A stretch of DNA of 64,000 nt from an uncultured Alphaproteobacteria bacterium (GTDB lineage: Bacteria > Pseudomonadota > Alphaproteobacteria > RF32 > CAG-239): NCBI GenBank assembly GCA_934254585.1, contig CAKQLF010000006.1, positions 2,839 to 66,838 of the forward strand, written 5' to 3'. Below the pieces are notes generated by a model that saw only the letters and a program-made list of their open reading frames with translations, did not search any database and was not told the DNA's origin. A program made the position numbers and the translations under genes. Below are positions 4,927 through 64,000 of the stretch, in pieces. Position 1 is the first letter of the stretch, and each line of letters opens with the position of its first letter.

Positions 4927-6231
4927 ATGGAACGATATTCATTGCAAACCTTAGAAAAATGGAAAAACAAAACCGGCAGAAAACCCTTGATAATTCAAGG
5001 TGCCAGACAAGTTGGTAAAACTTGGCTTTTAAAAGAATTCGGCCGCAGATATTATGAAAAAGTTGCCTATGTAAATTTTGATAATAATAAAAATATGGAG
5101 ATATTATTTTCTAAAGGTATGGAAATTTCTCAACTTCTGCAAGGGCTTGAACTGGAAACCGAAATAAAAATTACTCCGAACGACACTTTAATTATATTTG
5201 ATGAAATTCAGGAAAATCCCAATGCTTTAAATTCTCTGAAATATTTCTACGAAAATGCTCCCGAATATCACATTGTTGCCGCCGGCAGCCTGTTAGGTGT
5301 TGCCTTAACTCATCAAGGCAAATCATTTCCGGTCGGCAAAGTAGAATTTATGGATTTATACCCTATGAGCTTTTATGAATTTTTAGATGCTTTGGGTGAA
5401 GATAAACTATGCAGCGTTTTGAAACAACAAAATTTTGCTTTGATGGAAACCTTTAAGGCTAAATATGAAGATTTACTGAAAACTTATTTCTATGTCGGAG
5501 GTATGCCGGAAGCGGTTAAAAAATTTGCCGAACACCAAGATTTTCAAGAAGTACGCGAACTGCAAAACTTTCTGTTAAAATCTTATGAACAGGATTTTTC
5601 AAAACATATTGAAAAAAAAGACACCCCGAAAGTCCAAATGATATGGGACAGTATTCCCTCCCAGTTGGCAAAACCTAATCCTAAGTTTGTATACGGACTG
5701 CTAAAAGAAGGAACCAGAGCTAAAGAATTTGAAAATGCTTTGATTTGGCTCAAGAAAACCGGCTTAGTTTATCAAATAAACAAACTGAAAAAACCGGGGC
5801 TTCCGATATATGCTTATGAAGACCGAAGCTCTTTTAAACTTTATATGTTAGATATCGGACTTTTTTGCGCTAAAAGTTTGTTAGACGCCAAAACTCTTTT
5901 GTCCGGAAGCCGGATTTTTGAAGAATTCAAAGGTTCTTTAACCGAACAATATGTATTGCAAGAGCTGAAAACACTGTCTGATATGCCGATTACCTATTGG
6001 GAAGGCACTAACTCGGAAGTTGATTTTGTGGTGCAGCGCGGCAGCGAAATTATACCGGTTGAAGTGAAAGCTACAACTAATCTTAAAGCCAAAAGCCTAA
6101 AAGTTTACTGTGAAAAATATCAGCCGGCTCAAGCAGTACGAACATCTTTAGCTGACTTCAAAAAAACTGAAATCCTGACTGATATACCTTTATATGTTAT
6201 AGAAAATTTTGATAAAATTATAAATCAATAA
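4927..6231 (+). CDS. AAA-family ATPase, DUF4143-type ATP-binding protein
   Basis: 434 aa. Walker A motif GARQVGKTWLL near the N-terminus. The length and architecture are typical of the widespread AAA_14/DUF4143 ATPases. Confidence 0.75.
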   Translation: MERYSLQTLEKWKNKTGRKPLIIQGARQVGKTWLLKEFGRRYYEKVAYVNFDNNKNMEILFSKGMEISQLLQGLELETEIKITPNDTLIIFDEIQENPNALNSLKYFYENAPEYHIVAAGSLLGVALTHQGKSFPVGKVEFMDLYPMSFYEFLDALGEDKLCSVLKQQNFALMETFKAKYEDLLKTYFYVGGMPEAVKKFAEHQDFQEVRELQNFLLKSYEQDFSKHIEKKDTPKVQMIWDSIPSQLAKPNPKFVYGLLKEGTRAKEFENALIWLKKTGLVYQINKLKKPGLPIYAYEDRSSFKLYMLDIGLFCAKSLLDAKTLLSGSRIFEEFKGSLTEQYVLQELKTLSDMPITYWEGTNSEVDFVVQRGSEIIPVEVKATTNLKAKSLKVYCEKYQPAQAVRTSLADFKKTEILTDIPLYVIENFDKIINQ

Positions 6232-6283: not shown

Positions 6284-6454
6284 TTGATTTATTAAGAAGA
6301 GTTTGCTAAGGTTTGGGTATTGAATAATTCACCTGTTTTATGAGGAAAGAAAGATGAAAAATAAGCAATCAAAAGGTCTCTCTCTCTCTCTGCAAATCCT
6401 AACTGTCTGATTAAAGGCATATTTTCTGCCACTACAGACGTTTTTGCAAGTTTT
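6284..6454 (+). promoter_or_regulatory. Pilin-family 5' cassette, copy 1: a degenerate promoter (TTGATT-17-TAAGGT), GAGGAAAG RBS plus ATG, (CT)7, and a hairpin/T-run
   Basis: About 85% identical to the cassettes at 33321..33497 and 50365..50545. The -10 hexamer is TAAGGT rather than the TGcTATAAT seen in the other copies. Confidence 0.6.
6378..6391 (+). repeat. (CT)7 dinucleotide tract inside the cassette mini-ORF
   Basis: ctctctctctctct counted directly. The same position holds (CT)8 in copy 2 and (CT)7 in copy 3. Confidence 0.9.
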
Positions 6455-6796
6455 TTGAAGAATTTTAGTTGTAGAGAAACTACTCACTCACACTTCTTTA
6501 ATGTCATTAACGGGCTTGACCCGTTAATCTTGTCGCGACACACATTTTCTTCACTATTCTCAATCATTCGCGGGCACCTCTTTAGCGTCATTCGCTGGCA
6601 CAGACCAGCGAATCTAGATTGCCGGATCAGACTGTGCGTCACGTCCGGCAATGACAATAAGGTGGAGCATGTCGCGTTCGGCAATGACAGTAGATTGGGA
6701 CGATGGTTAAGAGCTGTTTGCAATTTAATAAATACCCCTCACTCGGCACTGTCGTGCCACTCTCTCCCGCACGGGGCGAGAGAGTATGGTCGTTCG

Positions 6797-7381
6797 ATGA
6801 TAGAAATGCTCGGAGTATTAGCTATAGTGGGTGTCCTTTCCGTCGGTGGTATCGCCGGCTATTCTAAGGCGATGGAAAAGTGGAGAATTAATAAGCTGAT
6901 GGAAGAATACAGTTATATGATACAAGGAATTTTAGGCCACTTAACTGAATTTCAAAAATTACCTCGCAATACCGGCCTCGTTGACGTTGGTTTAGCGATG
7001 AATTTTATCCCGTCAAATTGGAAAAAAATAAATCCATTACTCGCTTATGACACTTTCGGAAATGTGGTTAAACCTTATGCCAGAGATAAGCGCGTTGTCA
7101 TTGACTTTTATTTGGGAGGCTTTTCAGACGGACAAAAATCTAAAGGGTTTTCGCCCAGGATATGCGCCGCCATAATGAAAGATCTGGTCAAACCTTTACA
7201 TTCATCTTTAACCTACGCTTGGATATTTCGTGGTGGATTTGTTGTAACCGACCACTTTCGAGGCGACACACGTTGCACCTCCAATGTTACTTGTTTAAGA
7301 GACATCACTCCAGATGACATTAACCGAGTCTGCAACTTGTGTGACGGGGAAAGACAATGTTCCATTACAATTGAATTTTAA
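6797..7381 (+). CDS. Type IV pilin-like protein, copy 1. Start unresolved: 6797 is the only in-frame ATG and the frame is open from 6365
   Basis: GRSMIEMLGVLAIVGVLSVGGIAGYSKAM aligns with the prepilin N-terminal motif G-FTLIELMIVVAIIGILAA, with E at +5 and AIIG conserved. The Cys-rich C-terminus resembles a pilin D-region. It is a paralog of 33875, 50648 and 63150. The copy-2/4 GTG start position reads GAG here, so no equivalent start exists. Confidence 0.6.
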   Translation: MIEMLGVLAIVGVLSVGGIAGYSKAMEKWRINKLMEEYSYMIQGILGHLTEFQKLPRNTGLVDVGLAMNFIPSNWKKINPLLAYDTFGNVVKPYARDKRVVIDFYLGGFSDGQKSKGFSPRICAAIMKDLVKPLHSSLTYAWIFRGGFVVTDHFRGDTRCTSNVTCLRDITPDDINRVCNLCDGERQCSITIEF

Positions 7382-33320: not shown

Positions 33321-33497
33321 TTGATTTATTAAAAAGTATTTGCTATAATCATGGTGTTTAATAATTAACTATTTTTATGAGGAAAGAAAGATGAAAAATA
33401 AGCTTAGCAAAGGTCTCTCTCTCTCTCTCTGCAAATCCTAAATGTCTGATTAAAGGCATATTTTCTGCCGCTACAGACGTTTTTGCAAGTTTTTTCA
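33321..33497 (+). promoter_or_regulatory. Pilin-family 5' cassette, copy 2
   Basis: TTGATT at 33321-33326, a 17-nt spacer, then the extended -10 TGcTATAAT at 33341-33349. GAGGAAAG RBS with ATG at 33391. (CT)8 at 33415-33430. GTCTG..GGCA..UGCC..CAGAC hairpin followed by GTTTTTGCAAGTTTTTT. Confidence 0.65.
33415..33430 (+). repeat. (CT)8 tract, one unit longer than in copies 1 and 3
   Basis: Counted directly as ctctctctctctctct. Confidence 0.9.
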
Positions 33498-33829
33498 GAA
33501 AAAATGATGTATGCGAGAATAACAAGCACAGCACGAAACTGGCAGGCGGCACAAAGCAAGCAATTCTAGCACCAGTCATTCTAAGCCCTGTGCCTAGAAT
33601 CTTGTTGCAACAAGGTACTAACCTAGTCAATAAATTTGCCTTATTATTACATAAGTGTCGGTTCGCACAAGATTCTCGGGACAAGCCCGAGAATGGCGGT
33701 AGCTGGAGGTGTTGGCTTATTATTTGTTGCTCGTTTTTTAATCACCACTCACCCGACACTACCATGTCGACCGATAAGCCATCAAAGGGATTGGGTGTCG
33801 TGCGTCAATACGCCGCACTTTTGGAACGA

Positions 33830-33849
33830 CGTGTACAGAGTAGTACACG
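33830..33849 (+). promoter_or_regulatory. Perfect 7-bp inverted repeat CGTGTAC-N6-GTACACG, about 25 nt upstream of the GTG start
   Basis: The same inverted repeat occurs twice upstream of copy 4 (63775..63795 and 63889..63908). Confidence 0.5.
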
Positions 33850-33874
33850 AGCGCAAAAATTCCTAGCAGATGGC

Positions 33875-34567
33875 GTGCAGTACGGGAGAAGTATGATTGA
33901 AATGTTAGGCGTTCTGGCCATCATCGGTGTTTTGAGCGTTGCCGGAATCGCCGGTTATTCCAAGGCGATGACTAAGTGGAAAATCAACAAATCCATTGAA
34001 CAAATAGAGCAAATTACCCACAACACATTCACAACTTTTGCCAACCAAAAGGACTTTAGGTCTATATATTCTTCTGACGAAGATGGTATAAACCTTTTTA
34101 AATCTTTAGGCATAATCTCCGAGGATATGATTGTTGATGGTCAGCTAAAAAATTCATTTGGCGGGGATTTAAAACTGTATGCTGGCACATTTAATAGTAG
34201 TTATCTAACTCATTCAGGCGAAAAATATTTTTCACTTGAATACTGGAATATACCACGCGAAGCCTGTATGGCTTTGGGTTCCCTAGATTGGGCTAAAGGT
34301 TCTGATACTGTAATAGGTGTAGGAATCTCACCTAATCGTGATAATGTAATGATAGATCCTACTGAGTGTTGGCTTCTTAATTATCTCACCCTGGATTATC
34401 GCGACGGAGGCTGGTTAGTGGTTTGCAATAATGGTGTTCCAGATGAAGAGTATGGAGAAACGGAAGCTGATAGGATACCTCTGCCAATTCCGCTTGATAT
34501 TGTGGCCGAACATTGTAAATGCAAAGATAACGATTGTTATTTTGGCGTGGCCTTCACCGATAAATAA
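33875..34567 (+). CDS. Type IV pilin-like protein, copy 2. GTG start giving leader MQYG; the frame is open back to 33395
   Basis: QYGRSMIEMLGVLAIIGVLSVAGIAGYSKAM prepilin-type N-terminal helix. C-terminal Cys pairs (CKCKDNDC). Its 5' region is nearly identical to that of copy 4. Confidence 0.65.
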   Translation: MQYGRSMIEMLGVLAIIGVLSVAGIAGYSKAMTKWKINKSIEQIEQITHNTFTTFANQKDFRSIYSSDEDGINLFKSLGIISEDMIVDGQLKNSFGGDLKLYAGTFNSSYLTHSGEKYFSLEYWNIPREACMALGSLDWAKGSDTVIGVGISPNRDNVMIDPTECWLLNYLTLDYRDGGWLVVCNNGVPDEEYGETEADRIPLPIPLDIVAEHCKCKDNDCYFGVAFTDK

Positions 34568-34624
34568 CATCTTTTTCAGAGCTAAAAAATCCCTCATAAA
34601 AGCGCGGGGTTTCGGTATATAACT

Positions 34625-34658
34625 AAAAGCACTATATTGGAAAATACAGTGCTTTTAG
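34625..34658. terminator. Bidirectional terminator hairpin (AGCACT..AGTGCT) flanked by an A-run and a T-run
   Basis: Lies between the convergent pilin copy 2 and mnmA. Confidence 0.5.
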
Positions 34659-34659
34659 T

Positions 34660-35751
34660 TTATTCCATATTTGACTCGATTATGCCACCGCCAAGCAAAA
34701 CTTCGTCAATTTCATTGTTTTTATGATAAAAAACCACCGATTGCCCCGGAGCAATAGCCTTTTGTTTAGCATAAAAACGAACCTCTATTTTGCCCGCAGA
34801 CAGCGGGGTAATTTTCACCGGTGTCGGCTGCTGAGAAGAACGAATCTTGGCCTCACATTCCAATGGTGCGGTTAACTCAGCCACTTCTCCGCATAATTCG
34901 GCGGCAATCAATCCCGAACGTTCGCACTCCTCTTCAAAGCCGACAATAACTTCATTTCTGTCTTTGTTAAACCCAAGAACATACAACGGACGCTCGGCGG
35001 CAATTCCCATTCCGCGCCGTTGCCCAACCGTGTAATGCCAAATTCCCTGATGTTGTCCCAAAACTTTTCCGTCACGGGTTACAAAATTACCAACTTGCGG
35101 TTCATTTTGCAAAATATCGTTAATATCTCCGGTATAAAAATCTTGACTGTCCGGTTTGTCCGAAACTTCAAGTCCAAACTCGCGCGCCAATTCCCGCACC
35201 CGCTTTTTGGTTAGCCCGCCCAACGGCATCAAAACTTTTGAAAGCTGCTCTTGATTTAAGCGATACAAGAAATATGACTGGTCTTTGGTGCTGTCCAATC
35301 CACGCTTAATCACATAACGATTGCGAGATTCATCAAAACAAACTTGCGCATAGTGTCCGGTGGCAAATTTATCAAATTCAATTCCTTTAGCCTTAGCCTC
35401 TTCCGGCAAAGCGTTAAATTTGATGTAGGAATTACACATCACACACGGGTTTGGCGTGCGACCTGCCTTATATTCGTGCTTAAAGTTTTCTAACACCATT
35501 TGCTTATAGCGAGCCGAACAATCCAAAACATAGTACGGGATATCAATTTTTTGACATAACGCGCGCGCGGCCTCAATATCTTGTTCTTCATGCGGTGAAA
35601 AGCAAGAATCGGCATAAACATTGCCGCTGAAATGCGTATTTTTATCCCAAATAGACATTGTCGCGCCAATCACTTCATATCCCTGTTGTTTCAGCAAACA
35701 AGCCGTCACCGAAGAATCTACACCGCCGCTTAAACCAACTAAAACTTTCAT
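34660..35751 (-). CDS. mnmA: tRNA-specific 2-thiouridylase MnmA
   Basis: PP-loop motif VLVGLSGGVDSSV. The start was trimmed to the ATG at 35751 with GAGGTAAAAG upstream. Confidence 0.9.
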   Translation of the reverse strand: MKVLVGLSGGVDSSVTACLLKQQGYEVIGATMSIWDKNTHFSGNVYADSCFSPHEEQDIEAARALCQKIDIPYYVLDCSARYKQMVLENFKHEYKAGRTPNPCVMCNSYIKFNALPEEAKAKGIEFDKFATGHYAQVCFDESRNRYVIKRGLDSTKDQSYFLYRLNQEQLSKVLMPLGGLTKKRVRELAREFGLEVSDKPDSQDFYTGDINDILQNEPQVGNFVTRDGKVLGQHQGIWHYTVGQRRGMGIAAERPLYVLGFNKDRNEVIVGFEEECERSGLIAAELCGEVAELTAPLECEAKIRSSQQPTPVKITPLSAGKIEVRFYAKQKAIAPGQSVVFYHKNNEIDEVLLGGGIIESNME

Positions 35752-50364: not shown

Positions 50365-50545
50365 TTGATTTGTTAAGAAGTGCTTGCTATAATCAAGGTG
50401 TTTAATAGTTCACCTAATTTTATGAGGAAAGAAAGATGAAAAATAAGCAATCAAAAGGTCTCTCTCTCTCTCTGCAAATCCTAAATGTCTGATTAAAGGC
50501 ACATTTTCTGCTGCTACAGACGTTTTTACGAGTTTTTACAGAAAA
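50365..50545 (+). promoter_or_regulatory. Pilin-family 5' cassette, copy 3
   Basis: TTGATT at 50365-50370, a 17-nt spacer, then TGcTATAAT at 50385-50393. RBS with ATG at 50436. (CT)7 at 50460-50473. Hairpin followed by GTTTTTACGAGTTTTTAC. Confidence 0.65.
50460..50473 (+). repeat. (CT)7 tract
   Basis: Counted directly. Confidence 0.9.
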
Positions 50546-50647
50546 AATGATATATTAAAAAACCATCAACTCAGCGACGATTATACAGACTCACCCCATG
50601 CGGAAGATGTCACTGGATTGCTTCGCTATGCTCGCAATGACAGTAAG

Positions 50648-51253
50648 GTGCAGTGTGGACGAAGTATGATAGAAATGCTTGGCGTTCTGGCCATAATCGG
50701 CGTTCTGTCTGTCGGCGGTATTGCCGGTTATTCCAAGGCAATGATGAAATTCAAAACCAATCAAATTGCCGACCAAGTATCCACTATCGTAACTAATATC
50801 AAAACACTATACGCTCAGCAGAAAAACTACGAGGGGCTGAATAATGCTTCTGCTGTATCAATGGGAATTATACCGGACAAATTAGGCTCTGATTTAACCC
50901 ATCCATTTGGCGGAAATGTAGGCGTTTATTCAGATTATGGTATAAACACATTCTTTATTGAATATAAAGAGTTACCAAAAGAGGCTTGTATAAGTTTGGC
51001 AACTAATGACTGGGGCGCAAGTATTTCATCCGGTTTAGTTGCTATGGCTGTTAGCACTTATAGTACTTACATTCCTCCAATCTTAAACAAAATGTATTTA
51101 GGTTGCCAGGGGGAAGAACAATATTGGGGACGAGCTTATATAGCTTGCCCTGGTGGTTCGGTTCTGTCTGTTCCGATGAGTCCGGAAAAAGCCTCCGCCG
51201 CTTGTGCTTGTGATAAGGGAAATACTTGTTCGGTTGGTTGGATGTATCACTAA
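50648..51253 (+). CDS. Type IV pilin-like protein, copy 3. GTG start giving leader MQCG; an alternative TTG at 50618; the frame is open back to 50447
   Basis: CGRSMIEMLGVLAIIGVLSVGGIAGYSKAM. The alpha1 extension QVSTIVTNIKTLYAQQKNYEGL is shared with copy 4. C-terminal Cys cluster. Confidence 0.65.
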   Translation: MQCGRSMIEMLGVLAIIGVLSVGGIAGYSKAMMKFKTNQIADQVSTIVTNIKTLYAQQKNYEGLNNASAVSMGIIPDKLGSDLTHPFGGNVGVYSDYGINTFFIEYKELPKEACISLATNDWGASISSGLVAMAVSTYSTYIPPILNKMYLGCQGEEQYWGRAYIACPGGSVLSVPMSPEKASAACACDKGNTCSVGWMYH

Positions 51254-52685: not shown

Positions 52686-52762
52686 GCGCTCGTAGCTTAA
52701 TTGGATAGAGCATCTGACTACGGATCAGAAGGTTGTGAGTTCGAGTCCCGCCGAGCGCGCCA
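52686..52762 (+). tRNA. tRNA-Arg, anticodon ACG, with encoded CCA
   Basis: Manual fold: acceptor 1-7 with 67-73 (GCGCTCG/CGAGCGC); D-arm; anticodon stem TCTGA/TCAGA with loop CTACGGA; T-loop TTCGAGT. The T-stem GTGAG/CCCGC contains one A-C mismatch. Confidence 0.85.
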
Positions 52763-54763: not shown

Positions 54764-54856
54764 TAAAACCTGATACATTTAAAATCAGACCTTCATTACA
54801 GATTGTAAAAAAACAATCTGTTTTGAAGGTCTTTTTTTATGAACTCCAACAAACTT

Positions 54857-63116: not shown

Positions 63117-63151
63117 CGTAAAAGGCGGAAGTAAAATAACTTCCGCTTTTT
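63117..63151. terminator. Bidirectional terminator: GCGGAAG-taaaataa-CTTCCGC plus T5
   Basis: Lies between the convergent ugd and pilin copy 4. Confidence 0.6.
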
Positions 63152-63749
63152 ATCTGAAGAAAAGTCCCATACAAACGGTGCCATCTTGTTGAGCTCTATT
63201 GCAGTATTTGTTGGCCATATCAAAACTTATGATATTATTTCCGCCTTCAGCACAAACAAAATAAGCACCCTTTATTTCTATTTTTCCGGAACAACCTTGT
63301 CCGGTTTGCTTTATTCCTGCAGCTCCATTCAAAAAATTATGAGCGAGAACAATAGATATGCCGTACAAACCATTAGCATTGCCACCCCACTGTTGGGTGG
63401 TTAAAGCCAAGCATTGTCTTGCAGTCAGTCCGCAAATGCGTAAACCGAATAAGGCTCCATCTTCAGAAGCTCTTAATCGTACATCGGTATTTTTCCCCAA
63501 TGGCAAATTCCAATTGTTTTCCGGATACACACCGGCTTGTAATGCGGTTGAATCAGACAAACCTTCATACGATTTTTGCTGCATATAAAGCGTTTGCACA
63601 TTAGTGGCTATTTGTGTCAGATAATCAATAGTTTTATCTATTTTCCACTTTTCCATCGCTTTTGAATAGCCGGAGATTCCGCCGACGGAGAGAACAGCGA
63701 TTATGGCGAGAACGCCGAGCATTTCTATCATACTTCTCCCATACTGCAC
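63150..63749 (-). CDS. Type IV pilin-like protein, copy 4. GTG start at 63749 giving leader MQYG; the frame stays open upstream to beyond the window end
   Basis: QYGRSMIEMLGVLAIIAVLSVGGISGYSKAM. The alpha1 extension is shared with copy 3. C-terminal Cys residues are present. Its 5' cassette would lie beyond position 64000. Confidence 0.65.
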   Translation of the reverse strand: MQYGRSMIEMLGVLAIIAVLSVGGISGYSKAMEKWKIDKTIDYLTQIATNVQTLYMQQKSYEGLSDSTALQAGVYPENNWNLPLGKNTDVRLRASEDGALFGLRICGLTARQCLALTTQQWGGNANGLYGISIVLAHNFLNGAAGIKQTGQGCSGKIEIKGAYFVCAEGGNNIISFDMANKYCNRAQQDGTVCMGLFFR

Positions 63750-63774
63750 GCCATCTGCTAGGAATTTTCTCGCT

Positions 63775-63908
63775 CGTGTACTTTTTTTGTACACGTCGCT
63801 TAAAAATCCCGTCGCATCTGACGCACATTGCGGAAGAAGATTTCTAATATGTTTTGTCTGTTTGGTTACTGCTCGCGCTTTTCTCACTCGTGTACTACTC
63901 TGTACACG
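63775..63908 (-). promoter_or_regulatory. Two copies of the inverted repeat CGTGTAC-N6/7-GTACACG upstream of pilin copy 4
   Basis: 63775..63795 has an A7 spacer and 63889..63908 has spacer agagta. It is the same operator-like inverted repeat as at 33830..33849. Confidence 0.5.
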
Positions 63909-64000
63909 TCGTTCTAAAAGTGCGGCGTATTGACGCACGACATCCAATCCCTTGAATGTGATTGTATTTTTCTTTCTATAATCAATCACCCTCTCAACAT

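Follow-up and report, generated by a model that had tools for sequence, protein, structure and literature searches.

Pilin genes of uncultured gut Alphaproteobacteria carry a structured hairpin element in long, stop-free leaders with a length-variable (TC)n tract

The stretch of DNA analysed here, referred to below as the window, comprises 64,000 nucleotides of contig CAKQLF010000006.1 (positions 2,839 to 66,838, assembly GCA_934254585.1) from an uncultured alphaproteobacterium of the RF32 lineage. The window has a match in a contig from the gut metagenome of Hadza people. It holds four paralogous type IV pilin-like genes, and the subject of this work is an inverted repeat upstream of two of them, together with the hairpin element and the long leader to which it belongs. 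The four genes have in common the sequence ...Y/C-G-R-S-M-I-E-M-L-G-V-L-A-I-I... and a shared ATG, at 6797 (copy 1), 33893 (copy 2) and 50666 (copy 3) on the forward strand and at 63731 on the reverse strand (copy 4). Their first ~30 residues are near-identical, while the remainder has 29–39% identity to copy 2. In Pfam, copy 3 matches both Bundlin and PilS_N (type IVb) above cut-off and copy 4 matches Bundlin; all four have weak N_methyl matches. All four copies read G|RSMIEMLGVLAIIGVLSV. They have the glycine at −1, glutamate at +5 and hydrophobic N-terminal helix of type IV pilins, and G|RSMIE puts the glutamate at +5 of a class III signal peptide, the features of which have been reviewed (PMC4471445). 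In copy 2 the mature pilin (RSMIEMLGVLAII..., type IV pilin-like, Glu +5) is encoded by 33887..34567 of the forward strand, stop codon included; that of copy 4 is at 63150–63737 on the reverse strand, preceded by the Gly(−1) codon at 63740–63738. The G-R-S codons are GGG AGA AGT in copy 2 and GGT CGT TCG in copy 1. These residues are thus kept through synonymous codon replacement, and are therefore translated.

A first-pass annotation had drawn attention to the inverted repeat CGTGTAC-N6/7-GTACACG, which is indeed present at 33830–33849 upstream of copy 2 and at 63775–63795 and 63889–63908 upstream of copy 4. With the spacer relaxed to N5..8 the pattern has exactly these three matches in the window and no others, and there was no match in any of 100 dinucleotide-preserving shuffles of the window. 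The same annotation considered the region 5' of copies 2 and 4 to be more conserved than their coding sequence, and a proper alignment agrees. The 114 nt present in copy 4 alone were spliced out first, after which the upstream sequences are identical at 65/67 positions in the distal segment and 37/40 in the proximal segment (102/107 in sum, or 95%), compared to 71/90 (79%) over the first 90 nt from the shared ATG (Fisher p = 7e-4). The synonymous drift in the pilin codons was also correctly noted: within the first 26 codons, 10 of the 14 that differ are synonymous. Past about codon 35 the two proteins have 31% identity. The 5' region is better conserved than the pilin body because the leader is built from members of repeat families, held by structure and exchanged between loci, and because the pilin body diversifies.

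The inverted repeat belongs to a hairpin element of ~108 nt, of which it forms the invariant apex (CGACGUGUACA, loop, AGUACACGAG). The first-pass annotation had suggested looking for other occurrences, and an exact search for CGACGTGTACA-N5/6-AGTACACGAG, using one genome per species, found at least 111 stretches in roughly 45 or more different metagenome-assembled genomes (MAGs). Among the matches listed, the hosts are almost all uncultured Alphaproteobacteria, from the guts of humans, sheep, goats and deer. No apex match was found in viral contigs, and a phage origin for the element was rejected on this ground. From base to tip, the hairpin consists of an outer helix of 9–10 bp, an internal loop, a 4+5-bp helix with a bulge, a 3-bp helix and a GAA/AA loop, followed in the upper part by a variable helix of 9–10 bp, a 2x2 loop and a C-G pair with a GA bulge, and then by the apex, which is an invariant 7-bp helix with an A-rich loop of 7–8 nt.

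End-to-end folding is seen for 71 of 87 distinct copies of the element. In an alignment of 63 sequences, 23 of the 31 consensus pairs have changes on both sides of the pair; 90.8% of cells are paired, a share that falls to 34–50% if the partners are slid; and covariation scores 0.494, compared to 0.10–0.17, with none of 500 shuffles reaching the observed values. The apex helix alone never varies, while every lower helix covaries and the outer helices are the most variable. A covariance model built for the element, R1, found 24 further copies without the exact search pattern, in which GUGUAC..GUACA is kept; two of the copies found in this way carry the compensatory pair GUGUAG..CUACAC. Nothing in Rfam 15 matches the element at gathering score, either within the window or among 15 loci that have canonical copies, and at E up to 10 there are only chance-level matches to miRNA and snoRNA. 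The compensatory changes exceed the controls, as would be expected of a structured hairpin, be it RNA or single-stranded DNA. The nucleotide-level constraint proposed in the first-pass annotation is structural, residing in a long hairpin with covarying helices; a cis-regulatory operator is not supported.

The context of the element at the pilin genes is a long open frame. As determined for 28 distinct loci, the pilin frame stays open 5' of Gly(−1) over a median of 100 codons, compared to 22.5 and 8.5 for the other two frames. In copies 1–3 the open frame begins at a block of ~125 nt that is conserved between the paralogs, with 88% mean column identity, and contains a promoter-like TGCTATAAT, a Shine-Dalgarno sequence (SD) GAGGAAAG, an ATG, codons for MKNK(Q/L)SKG and a dinucleotide tract (TC)n. 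In copy 2 the promoter-like site, TTGATT-17-TATAAT with TG before the −10, is at 33321..33349 on the forward strand, as located by a consensus scan only, and the same TGCTATAAT is found upstream of copy 3. The start block of copy 2 covers 33379..33441 on the forward strand, with the SD GAGGAAAG at 33379–33386 and the ATG at 33391. A short out-of-frame open reading frame (ORF), MKNKLSKGLSLSLCKS followed by a stop, runs from this ATG (33391–33441, forward strand) through a (TC)8 tract at 33414..33429, which leaves the pilin in frame +1 relative to the ATG; copy 2 would be in frame were n 6 or 9. The stop-free leader of copy 2, in the pilin frame, spans 33395..33886 on the forward strand (163 codons after the TGA at 33392–33394), and ends at the Gly(−1) codon, 33884–33886.

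Copies 1 and 3 have the same layout on the same strand. The start block and leader of copy 1 extend over 6342..6790 (SD 6342, ATG 6354, stop-free leader 6365–6790), and those of copy 3 over 50424..50659 (SD 50424, ATG 50436, stop-free leader 50447–50659); each has an out-of-frame (TC)7 tract, at 6377–6390 and 50459–50472 respectively. In all three copies the tract sits eight codons after the ATG (MKNKQSKG), and once the tract is subtracted, 420, 477 and 207 nt separate the ATG from Gly(−1) in copies 1, 2 and 3, all multiples of 3. The leader of copy 4, on the reverse strand, is open to the end of the window at 64000 and lacks a (TC)n tract. On the source contig, the ORF of copy 4 begins 202 nt past the window, with the SD and start codon AAGGAG-N7-GTG and the sequence MLENGKMG..., in frame and ungated; this leader comprises 154 codons and holds a repetitive extragenic palindromic (REP) sequence as well as both hairpins. 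The start region of copy 4 can be seen in locus L189 at 5892–6200 (window-equivalent 64202–64510), with SD AAGGAG, GTG and MLENGKMGLLRRVFE..., and is shared by P0008 and P0014. The intergenic region upstream of this start contains an inverted pair, GTCCGTTTTAAACC...GGTTTAAA.

Scanning metagenomes for the start block added 69 loci, and 82 distinct blocks were compared. The value of n is 7 in 53 of these and 8 in 22, with five blocks at n=6 and one each at n=5 and n=9. The register of the leader was tested for the 57 blocks whose locus also contains a pilin. The register, calculated as (distance − 2n) mod 3, is 0 in 56 of them, and the leader is stop-free in 55, with a span of 198–947 nt. In n=7 alleles the pilin is always in frame +2, and in n=8 alleles it is in frame +1, with one exception; the four n=6 alleles that have a pilin in their locus all have it in frame. 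A complete example is L119, which has an SD, an ATG, (TC)6, a leader of 66 codons and G|RSMIEML, within an ORF of 268 aa. Among 15 pairs of alleles at least 97% identical over 300–900 nt, n differs in 8; thus L002 (n=7) has 99.6% identity with L003 and L006 (n=8). A leader indel between two strains is of 15 nt. The metagenome contigs often begin or end within a few nucleotides of the start block or the (TC)n tract (L002 and L004, at contig starts; L129, L149, L153, L163, L166 and others), and the assemblies appear to break at this multi-copy, length-variable sequence.

Copies 2 and 4 carry the element as a module of their long leader, which lies between a translation start block and G|RSMIEML and which is stop-free and in register with the upstream ATG, save for a hypermutable (TC)n tract of polymorphic length. 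The tract is inside an ORF and near its start, certain lengths place the pilin in frame, and n is polymorphic among near-identical alleles, all of which are features of phase variation. There is consequently strong support from the sequences for the proposal that the pilin is made by read-through from the upstream ATG, only if n is a multiple of 3, and equally that many of the pilin paralogs undergo phase variation by slipped-strand mispairing. Given the known topology of class III signal peptides (PMC4471445), it is also strongly supported that a leader of 66–315 aa remains cytoplasmic and is cleaved off at Gly(−1); we infer that the leader is translated and that cleavage is at G|R. The first-pass annotation placed the pilin start at the GTG at 33875, which is probably internal to this leader.

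The position of the element in these leaders is largely fixed. The sense strand of the pilin carries CGACGUGUACA..., in reversed orientation compared to the copies at gene ends described below. In 24 of the 29 copies linked to a pilin, exactly 32 nt separate the end of the core from the Gly(−1) codon, and the loop has 7 nt in 27/27 proximal copies as against 6–8 nt elsewhere. The 3' arm of the hairpin forms the last codons of the leader, and the outer helix takes in the G-R/K-S codons. The upstream arm tracks the synonymous codon choice for G-R/K-S in five codon sets: it is cuucuucc in copy 4, where the codons are GGG AGA AGU; gcuucuucc in L099, for GGA AGA AGC; ggaacgacc in L032, for GGU CGU UCC; agaccgccc in L058, for GGG CGG UCU; and cuuuugcc in L046, for GGC AAA AGU. 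At paired positions the sense strand of the pilin has 63 G.U and 19 A.C, compared to 93 and 71 for non-pilin copies.

The proximal hairpin of copy 4 (63723–63848, reverse strand, with the inverted repeat at 63775–63795) is canonical, scoring 101.3 bits with R1 and folding at −52.9 kcal/mol (z = −8.1). Its outer stem CUUCUUCC pairs with GGG AGA AG of codons G-R-S (63740–63732), and a GUG at 63749 and the AUG at 63731 are inside the helix or adjoin it. The distal hairpin of copy 4 (63854–63947, reverse strand, inverted repeat at 63889–63908) is of a different subtype, with 49.5 bits and z = −3.7. The repeat does occur twice in copy 4, as originally described, but the two units have only 63% identity outside the apex, and are different members of the family placed in tandem, not the product of a recent 115-nt duplication. 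The hairpin of copy 2 (33771–33901, forward strand, core 33827–33851, inverted repeat 33830–33849) scores 49.8 bits, with many non-standard pairs and z = −1.25. It has an arm and apex of the distal type on the 5' side, joined at the apex to a 3' arm of the pilin type, and the lower stem is broken; judged by its sequence, it is a deletion chimera whose stem no longer pairs. Recombination between the copies, one of the possibilities originally raised, is real. The upstream region of copy 2 corresponds to the arrangement of copy 4 minus the 114 nt between the apexes, and strains differ at the orthologous locus. Orthologues of copy 2 in other strains have the double arrangement in P0005 and P0012, the chimeric one in P0001 and P0011, and the distal unit fused directly to GRS in P0003, P0006 and P0017.

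The element is one of several repeats in these leaders. The 57 leaders are mosaics of recurrent palindromic modules, with the apex element in 27, REPs of the TGTC/CGTC type (translated as GLLRxARND) in 32, and neither in 9. REPs of the CGTC class have a tag of CGTC/TGTC/CCTC or GTAG, a stem of 8–9 bp starting AT, a loop of 4–5 nt and a CCA tail, and are also found at the N-termini of ORFs and inside ORFs (PMC3733652). The sequence GCAATGACAGTA, at 6681 in copy 1 and 50634 in copy 3, is the reverse complement of a TGTC-tagged REP of this description, and has the tag, the stem starting AT and the CCA tail of CGTC/GTAG-tagged REPs (PMC3733652). In reverse complement, the REP of copy 3 is TGTC-ATTGCGAG-CATAG-CGAAGCAAT-CCA, and that of copy 1 is TGTC-ATTGCCGGA...TCCGGCAAT, with a 9-bp stem and a long loop. 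The TGTC-tagged REP hairpins of the copy 1 leader are at about 6615–6660 and 6672–6692, where the pilin frame reads ...GLLRYARND..., and that of the copy 3 leader is at about 50613–50645, where it reads ...CRI..SGND.... The first-pass annotation rightly noted that copies 1 and 3 share GCAATGACAGTA, but the two subfamilies that it defined on this basis are better viewed as optional repeat modules in differing combinations. The leader of copy 2 contains two further palindromes that recur elsewhere as leader modules, namely a perfect hairpin TTCTCGGG-ACAAG-CCCGAGAA at 33673–33693 and the palindrome CTTGTTG|CAACAAG at 33601–33614; they appear in other leaders as ...DSRDKPEN... and ...PRILLQQ....

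Copies of the element outside pilin genes are found mainly at gene ends. In 49 of 94 such copies a gene of 80 aa or more comes to its end 20–70 nt from the core on one particular side alone (mode 35–44 nt), while for the remainder this is true of the other side alone in 3, of both sides in 2 and of neither in 40. The element therefore begins at the stop codon; of 51 such codons, 42 are TAA. The genes that end at the element are unrelated housekeeping genes, identified using Pfam (FabG, OmpA, FadL, L15, PGK, L25, RecR, FabZ, FliE) or by eye (S1, MutL, HtpG, LepA, YchF). A bidirectional intrinsic terminator is a hairpin at the 3' end of a gene, followed by a U-tract and preceded by an A-tract. 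Flanking A-runs and T-runs are both present in 39 of 86 full-length non-pilin copies and both absent in another 39, and neither is present in 23 of 27 pilin-type copies. The gene-end copies show no strand bias in their G.U counts. The end of fabG (...GGMAMI followed by the stop) carries the element in 7 loci from different MAGs, and the four of these copies that were compared have compensatory differences in the stem, which suggests vertical inheritance under structural constraint.

Other arrangements of the element were also seen. Tandem arrays of the 5' arm and apex, with a period of 86–87 nt, occur in L068 (2548–2746) and L108, with three copies each, and in L077, and arrays of longer period occur in L011 and L109; the 3' arm is present after the last unit only. 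A subtype of the element lies directly 5' of a gene starting MMKMRNIAI... (L009, L011, L054, L092, L109), where an SD-like AGGGAAG is within the outer 3' arm, a second case of the hairpin overlapping translation start signals. The same 26-nt apex hairpin, on a short GGCC stem, is found in the rRNA spacer of a betaproteobacterial MAG (L079 6952–6978, where it sits between two tRNA genes, and L116 at about 6036–6061). Variants of the apex on very different long stems are found in Rickettsiales-like and other Pseudomonadota MAGs (L020, L086, L095, L102). Within the window, terminator-like hairpins flanked by A/T but without the apex, at 54777–54842 and 34613–34668, are weak matches to the covariance model (E 0.14–3).

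On the basis of these observations, the interpretation that we favour, with moderate confidence, is that the element is a hairpin module in a (TC)n-gated pilin leader, and that the proximal hairpin functions to mask internal translation starts. Ribosomes would start at the upstream ATG and read the whole leader when n is a multiple of 3. In the mRNA, the last leader codons and the G-R/K-S codons would pair with the complementary upstream arm to form the proximal hairpin, and this would bury the internal GUG and AUG together with an SD-like GGGAGAAG. With its internal starts buried, an out-of-frame gene would remain silent and expression would rest on the gated start, from which ribosomes would melt the hairpin. 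The broken stem of copy 2 is then predicted to leak. Slippage by ±2 on (UC)n, either ribosomal or transcriptional, is a possible alternative. The wider picture, to which we subscribe only tentatively, is of a large, dispersed family of type IVb-like pilins expressed one or a few at a time by (TC)n switching, with leaders of 66–315 aa built from palindromes and several times the length of any prepilin leader so far described, an undescribed hairpin that serves in one orientation at gene 3' ends and in the other to mask translation around the pilin cleavage site, and an apex that is read by some factor.

Several observations count against this interpretation. In-frame alleles are rare (4 of 57 loci), although this would be expected if one of about 20 paralogs is on per cell and the assemblies report the majority. 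A search with the in-frame leader against a database of 5.8 billion proteins gave three short ORFs only, of which the one on a long contig (n=9) stops after 72 aa, near the contig end. Type IV prepilins have a short hydrophilic leader of 6–30 aa (PMC4471445), which the predicted leaders of 66–315 aa far exceed. The hairpin of copy 2 itself is broken; the apex element is absent from 30 of the 57 leaders, and hence is not required; and the gene-end copies are oriented opposite to the pilin copies. The covariation must also be read with care, since gene conversion from arm to arm within palindromes could mimic compensatory change without any selection on RNA, and the copies of the element are related to each other, so that the counts overstate the number of independent events.

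The main rival reading takes the element to be a selfish or neutral palindrome, tolerated in a leader that is cut off, filtered only for frame and lack of stops like Rickettsia palindromic elements in coding regions, and with no role in expression, as has been proposed for many REPs and Rickettsia palindromic elements. The element is optional, as just noted; the leaders, at 198–947 nt, are mosaics of several repeat types; the same family is found at many unrelated gene ends and in tandem partial arrays (L068, L108); and REPs are known at the N-termini of ORFs and inside them (PMC3733652). We regard this as possible but rather unlikely. It does not account for proximal copies that always have the same position and orientation and a 7-nt loop, nor for a 5' arm that follows the synonymous G-R/K-S codons, nor for the excess of G.U over A.C on the sense strand. 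In addition, the apex is invariant across roughly 45 or more MAGs while the stems change, which points to selection over decay.

The element could instead act as a DNA-level site, whether as a hot spot for recombination or slippage or as the target of a recombinase or HUH/RAYT-type enzyme acting on a hairpin, and could in this way drive exchange of 5' modules or pilin cassettes among paralogs. In favour of this, copy 2 is the copy 4 arrangement with the segment between the apexes deleted, strains have double, chimeric or fused arrangements at one locus, the tandem arrays (86–87-nt period) repeat only the 5' arm and apex, and the apex has two inverted arms of 10–11 nt around a spacer of 5–6 nt. 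Even so, the spacer (the loop) varies in sequence and length, which is unfavourable for strand exchange by tyrosine recombinases; the lower helices covary, which a double-stranded core site does not need; and no association with a recombinase or transposase was seen, though no systematic search for one was made. This explanation is improbable.

Alternatively, the leader may be untranslated, with pilin synthesis beginning at a GTG located four codons 5' of the cleavage site (33875 in copy 2) and the hairpin acting as an ordinary riboregulator or attenuator in the 5'-UTR. The sequence GTG-CAG-TAY/TGT-GG is present in copies 2, 3 and 4, gene callers choose various internal starts, and known leader peptides are short (PMC4471445). 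We consider this very unlikely, because it leaves unexplained both the frame-specific absence of stops (median 100 codons) and the register in 56 of 57 loci, and because copy 1 lacks such a GTG and the resulting MQYG and MPLCG leaders have no positive charge. A related idea is that the pilin starts at the GUG of the apex, which is in frame in 27/27 proximal copies and gives a basic 19-aa leader (MYKxSTRA...); this GUG may serve as an internal start, but the idea is superseded by the register with the upstream ATG.

The suggestion of the first-pass annotation, that the inverted repeat is an operator for a dimeric transcription factor controlling copies 2 and 4, has in its favour a perfect 7-bp palindrome with GTAC cores, conserved between two paralogs, but has hardly any remaining likelihood: the repeat at 33830–33849 sits in a stop-free frame, about 480 nt 3' of the promoter-like site and 440 nt 3' of the ATG at 33391 (the likely start codon), its flanks form a covarying hairpin of 108 nt, its loop varies from 6 to 8 nt, and in 51 of the 94 non-pilin copies it directly adjoins an unrelated gene's stop codon, with no regulon of related promoters. 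Three further candidates were rejected or set aside. A DNA-uptake sequence, which is suggested by inverted pairs that serve as terminators and by the link to pili, is excluded because CGTGTAC half-sites are not enriched in the window (3 outside the repeats, 2.4 expected). A sigma-54 promoter, GGCAT-N6-TGC, in the conserved block is 3' of the SD and ATG and inside the frame-gated ORF. The spacing of a LexA-like GTAC-N7-GTAC box varies from 6 to 8 nt.

The element resembles several known families of repeats. As with REP and REPIN sequences (PMC3733652), it is a short palindrome in many copies, mostly just 3' of ORFs and sometimes overlapping their stop codons, at times in the N-termini of ORFs, capable of forming larger hairpins and plausibly acting as RNA. 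True TGTC-tagged REPs occupy the same leaders (copies 1 and 3). The apex, CGAC-GUGUAC-(7–8 nt)-GUACAC-GAG with a 7-bp stem and A-rich loop, nevertheless does not fit the description of a REP, and the conserved part of the element is the tip of a hairpin of 108 nt in which the lower helices vary. Rickettsia palindromic elements (RPE), or coding palindromes, are about 100–150 nt long and are found in frame and without stops within ORFs. The element is likewise palindromic, alphaproteobacterial, in frame and stop-free; it differs in being located in a leader predicted to be cleaved off rather than in the mature protein, and in that the same family also forms gene-end hairpins. ERIC, Correia and similar elements resembling MITEs (miniature inverted-repeat transposable elements) are imperfect palindromes of about 100–150 nt that are transcribed together with genes and act on their termination, processing and mRNA stability. 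In MITEs the terminal inverted repeats are conserved and the middle varies. Here the opposite is true, in that the middle is invariant and the ends vary, and no target-site duplication is evident.

The gating of surface proteins by short repeats also has precedents. Phase variation by repeats in the region encoding the signal peptide is found in the opa genes of Neisseria. In Helicobacter pylori, oipA and sabA have CT/TC dinucleotide or CTCTT repeats in the corresponding region (PMC10564699, PMC2715451). As in the CT-repeat genes of H. pylori, the repeat of the pilins is a few codons after the ATG and sets the frame of a surface protein (PMC10564699, PMC2715451); as in these systems, there are many paralogs each with its own tract, whose length differs between near-identical alleles. 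The pilins differ from the H. pylori and Neisseria genes in that the product is of the type IV pilin family in uncultured gut commensals, in the presence of a repeat-built leader of 0.2–0.9 kb between the tract and the mature protein, and in that n is almost entirely 6–8. With class III prepilins of type IVb (PMC4471445) they share Gly −1, Glu +5, a hydrophobic helix some 21 residues long and the matches to Bundlin and PilS_N; besides the predicted leader of 66–315 aa in place of 6–30 aa, the +1 residue is Arg or Lys.

What appeared to be an operator thus leads to a structured repeat family with an identical apex across roughly 45 or more MAGs, and to what would be a phase-variable, multi-paralog pilin system in a lineage known from metagenomes alone. 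We found nothing on this system in the literature on RF32 and pilin. Pili are adhesins, antigens and phage receptors. If the proposal is correct, frame-switching of about 20 paralogs per genome would allow a common commensal of the human and ruminant gut to vary its surface. The stop-free, repeat-built leaders would challenge the accepted size range of class III signal peptides, and would explain both the erratic N-termini given to these pilins by gene callers and the breaks in assemblies at these loci.

The neighbours of the pilin genes are housekeeping genes (a CoA transferase, MnmA, SSB, the ATP synthase operon, ClpB and others). Homologues of the pilins are found in uncultured Alphaproteobacteria of the gut and rumen, with more than 7,600 family members. 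The sole Rfam or ARAGORN match in the window is a tRNA-Arg (ACG), at 52686–52762.

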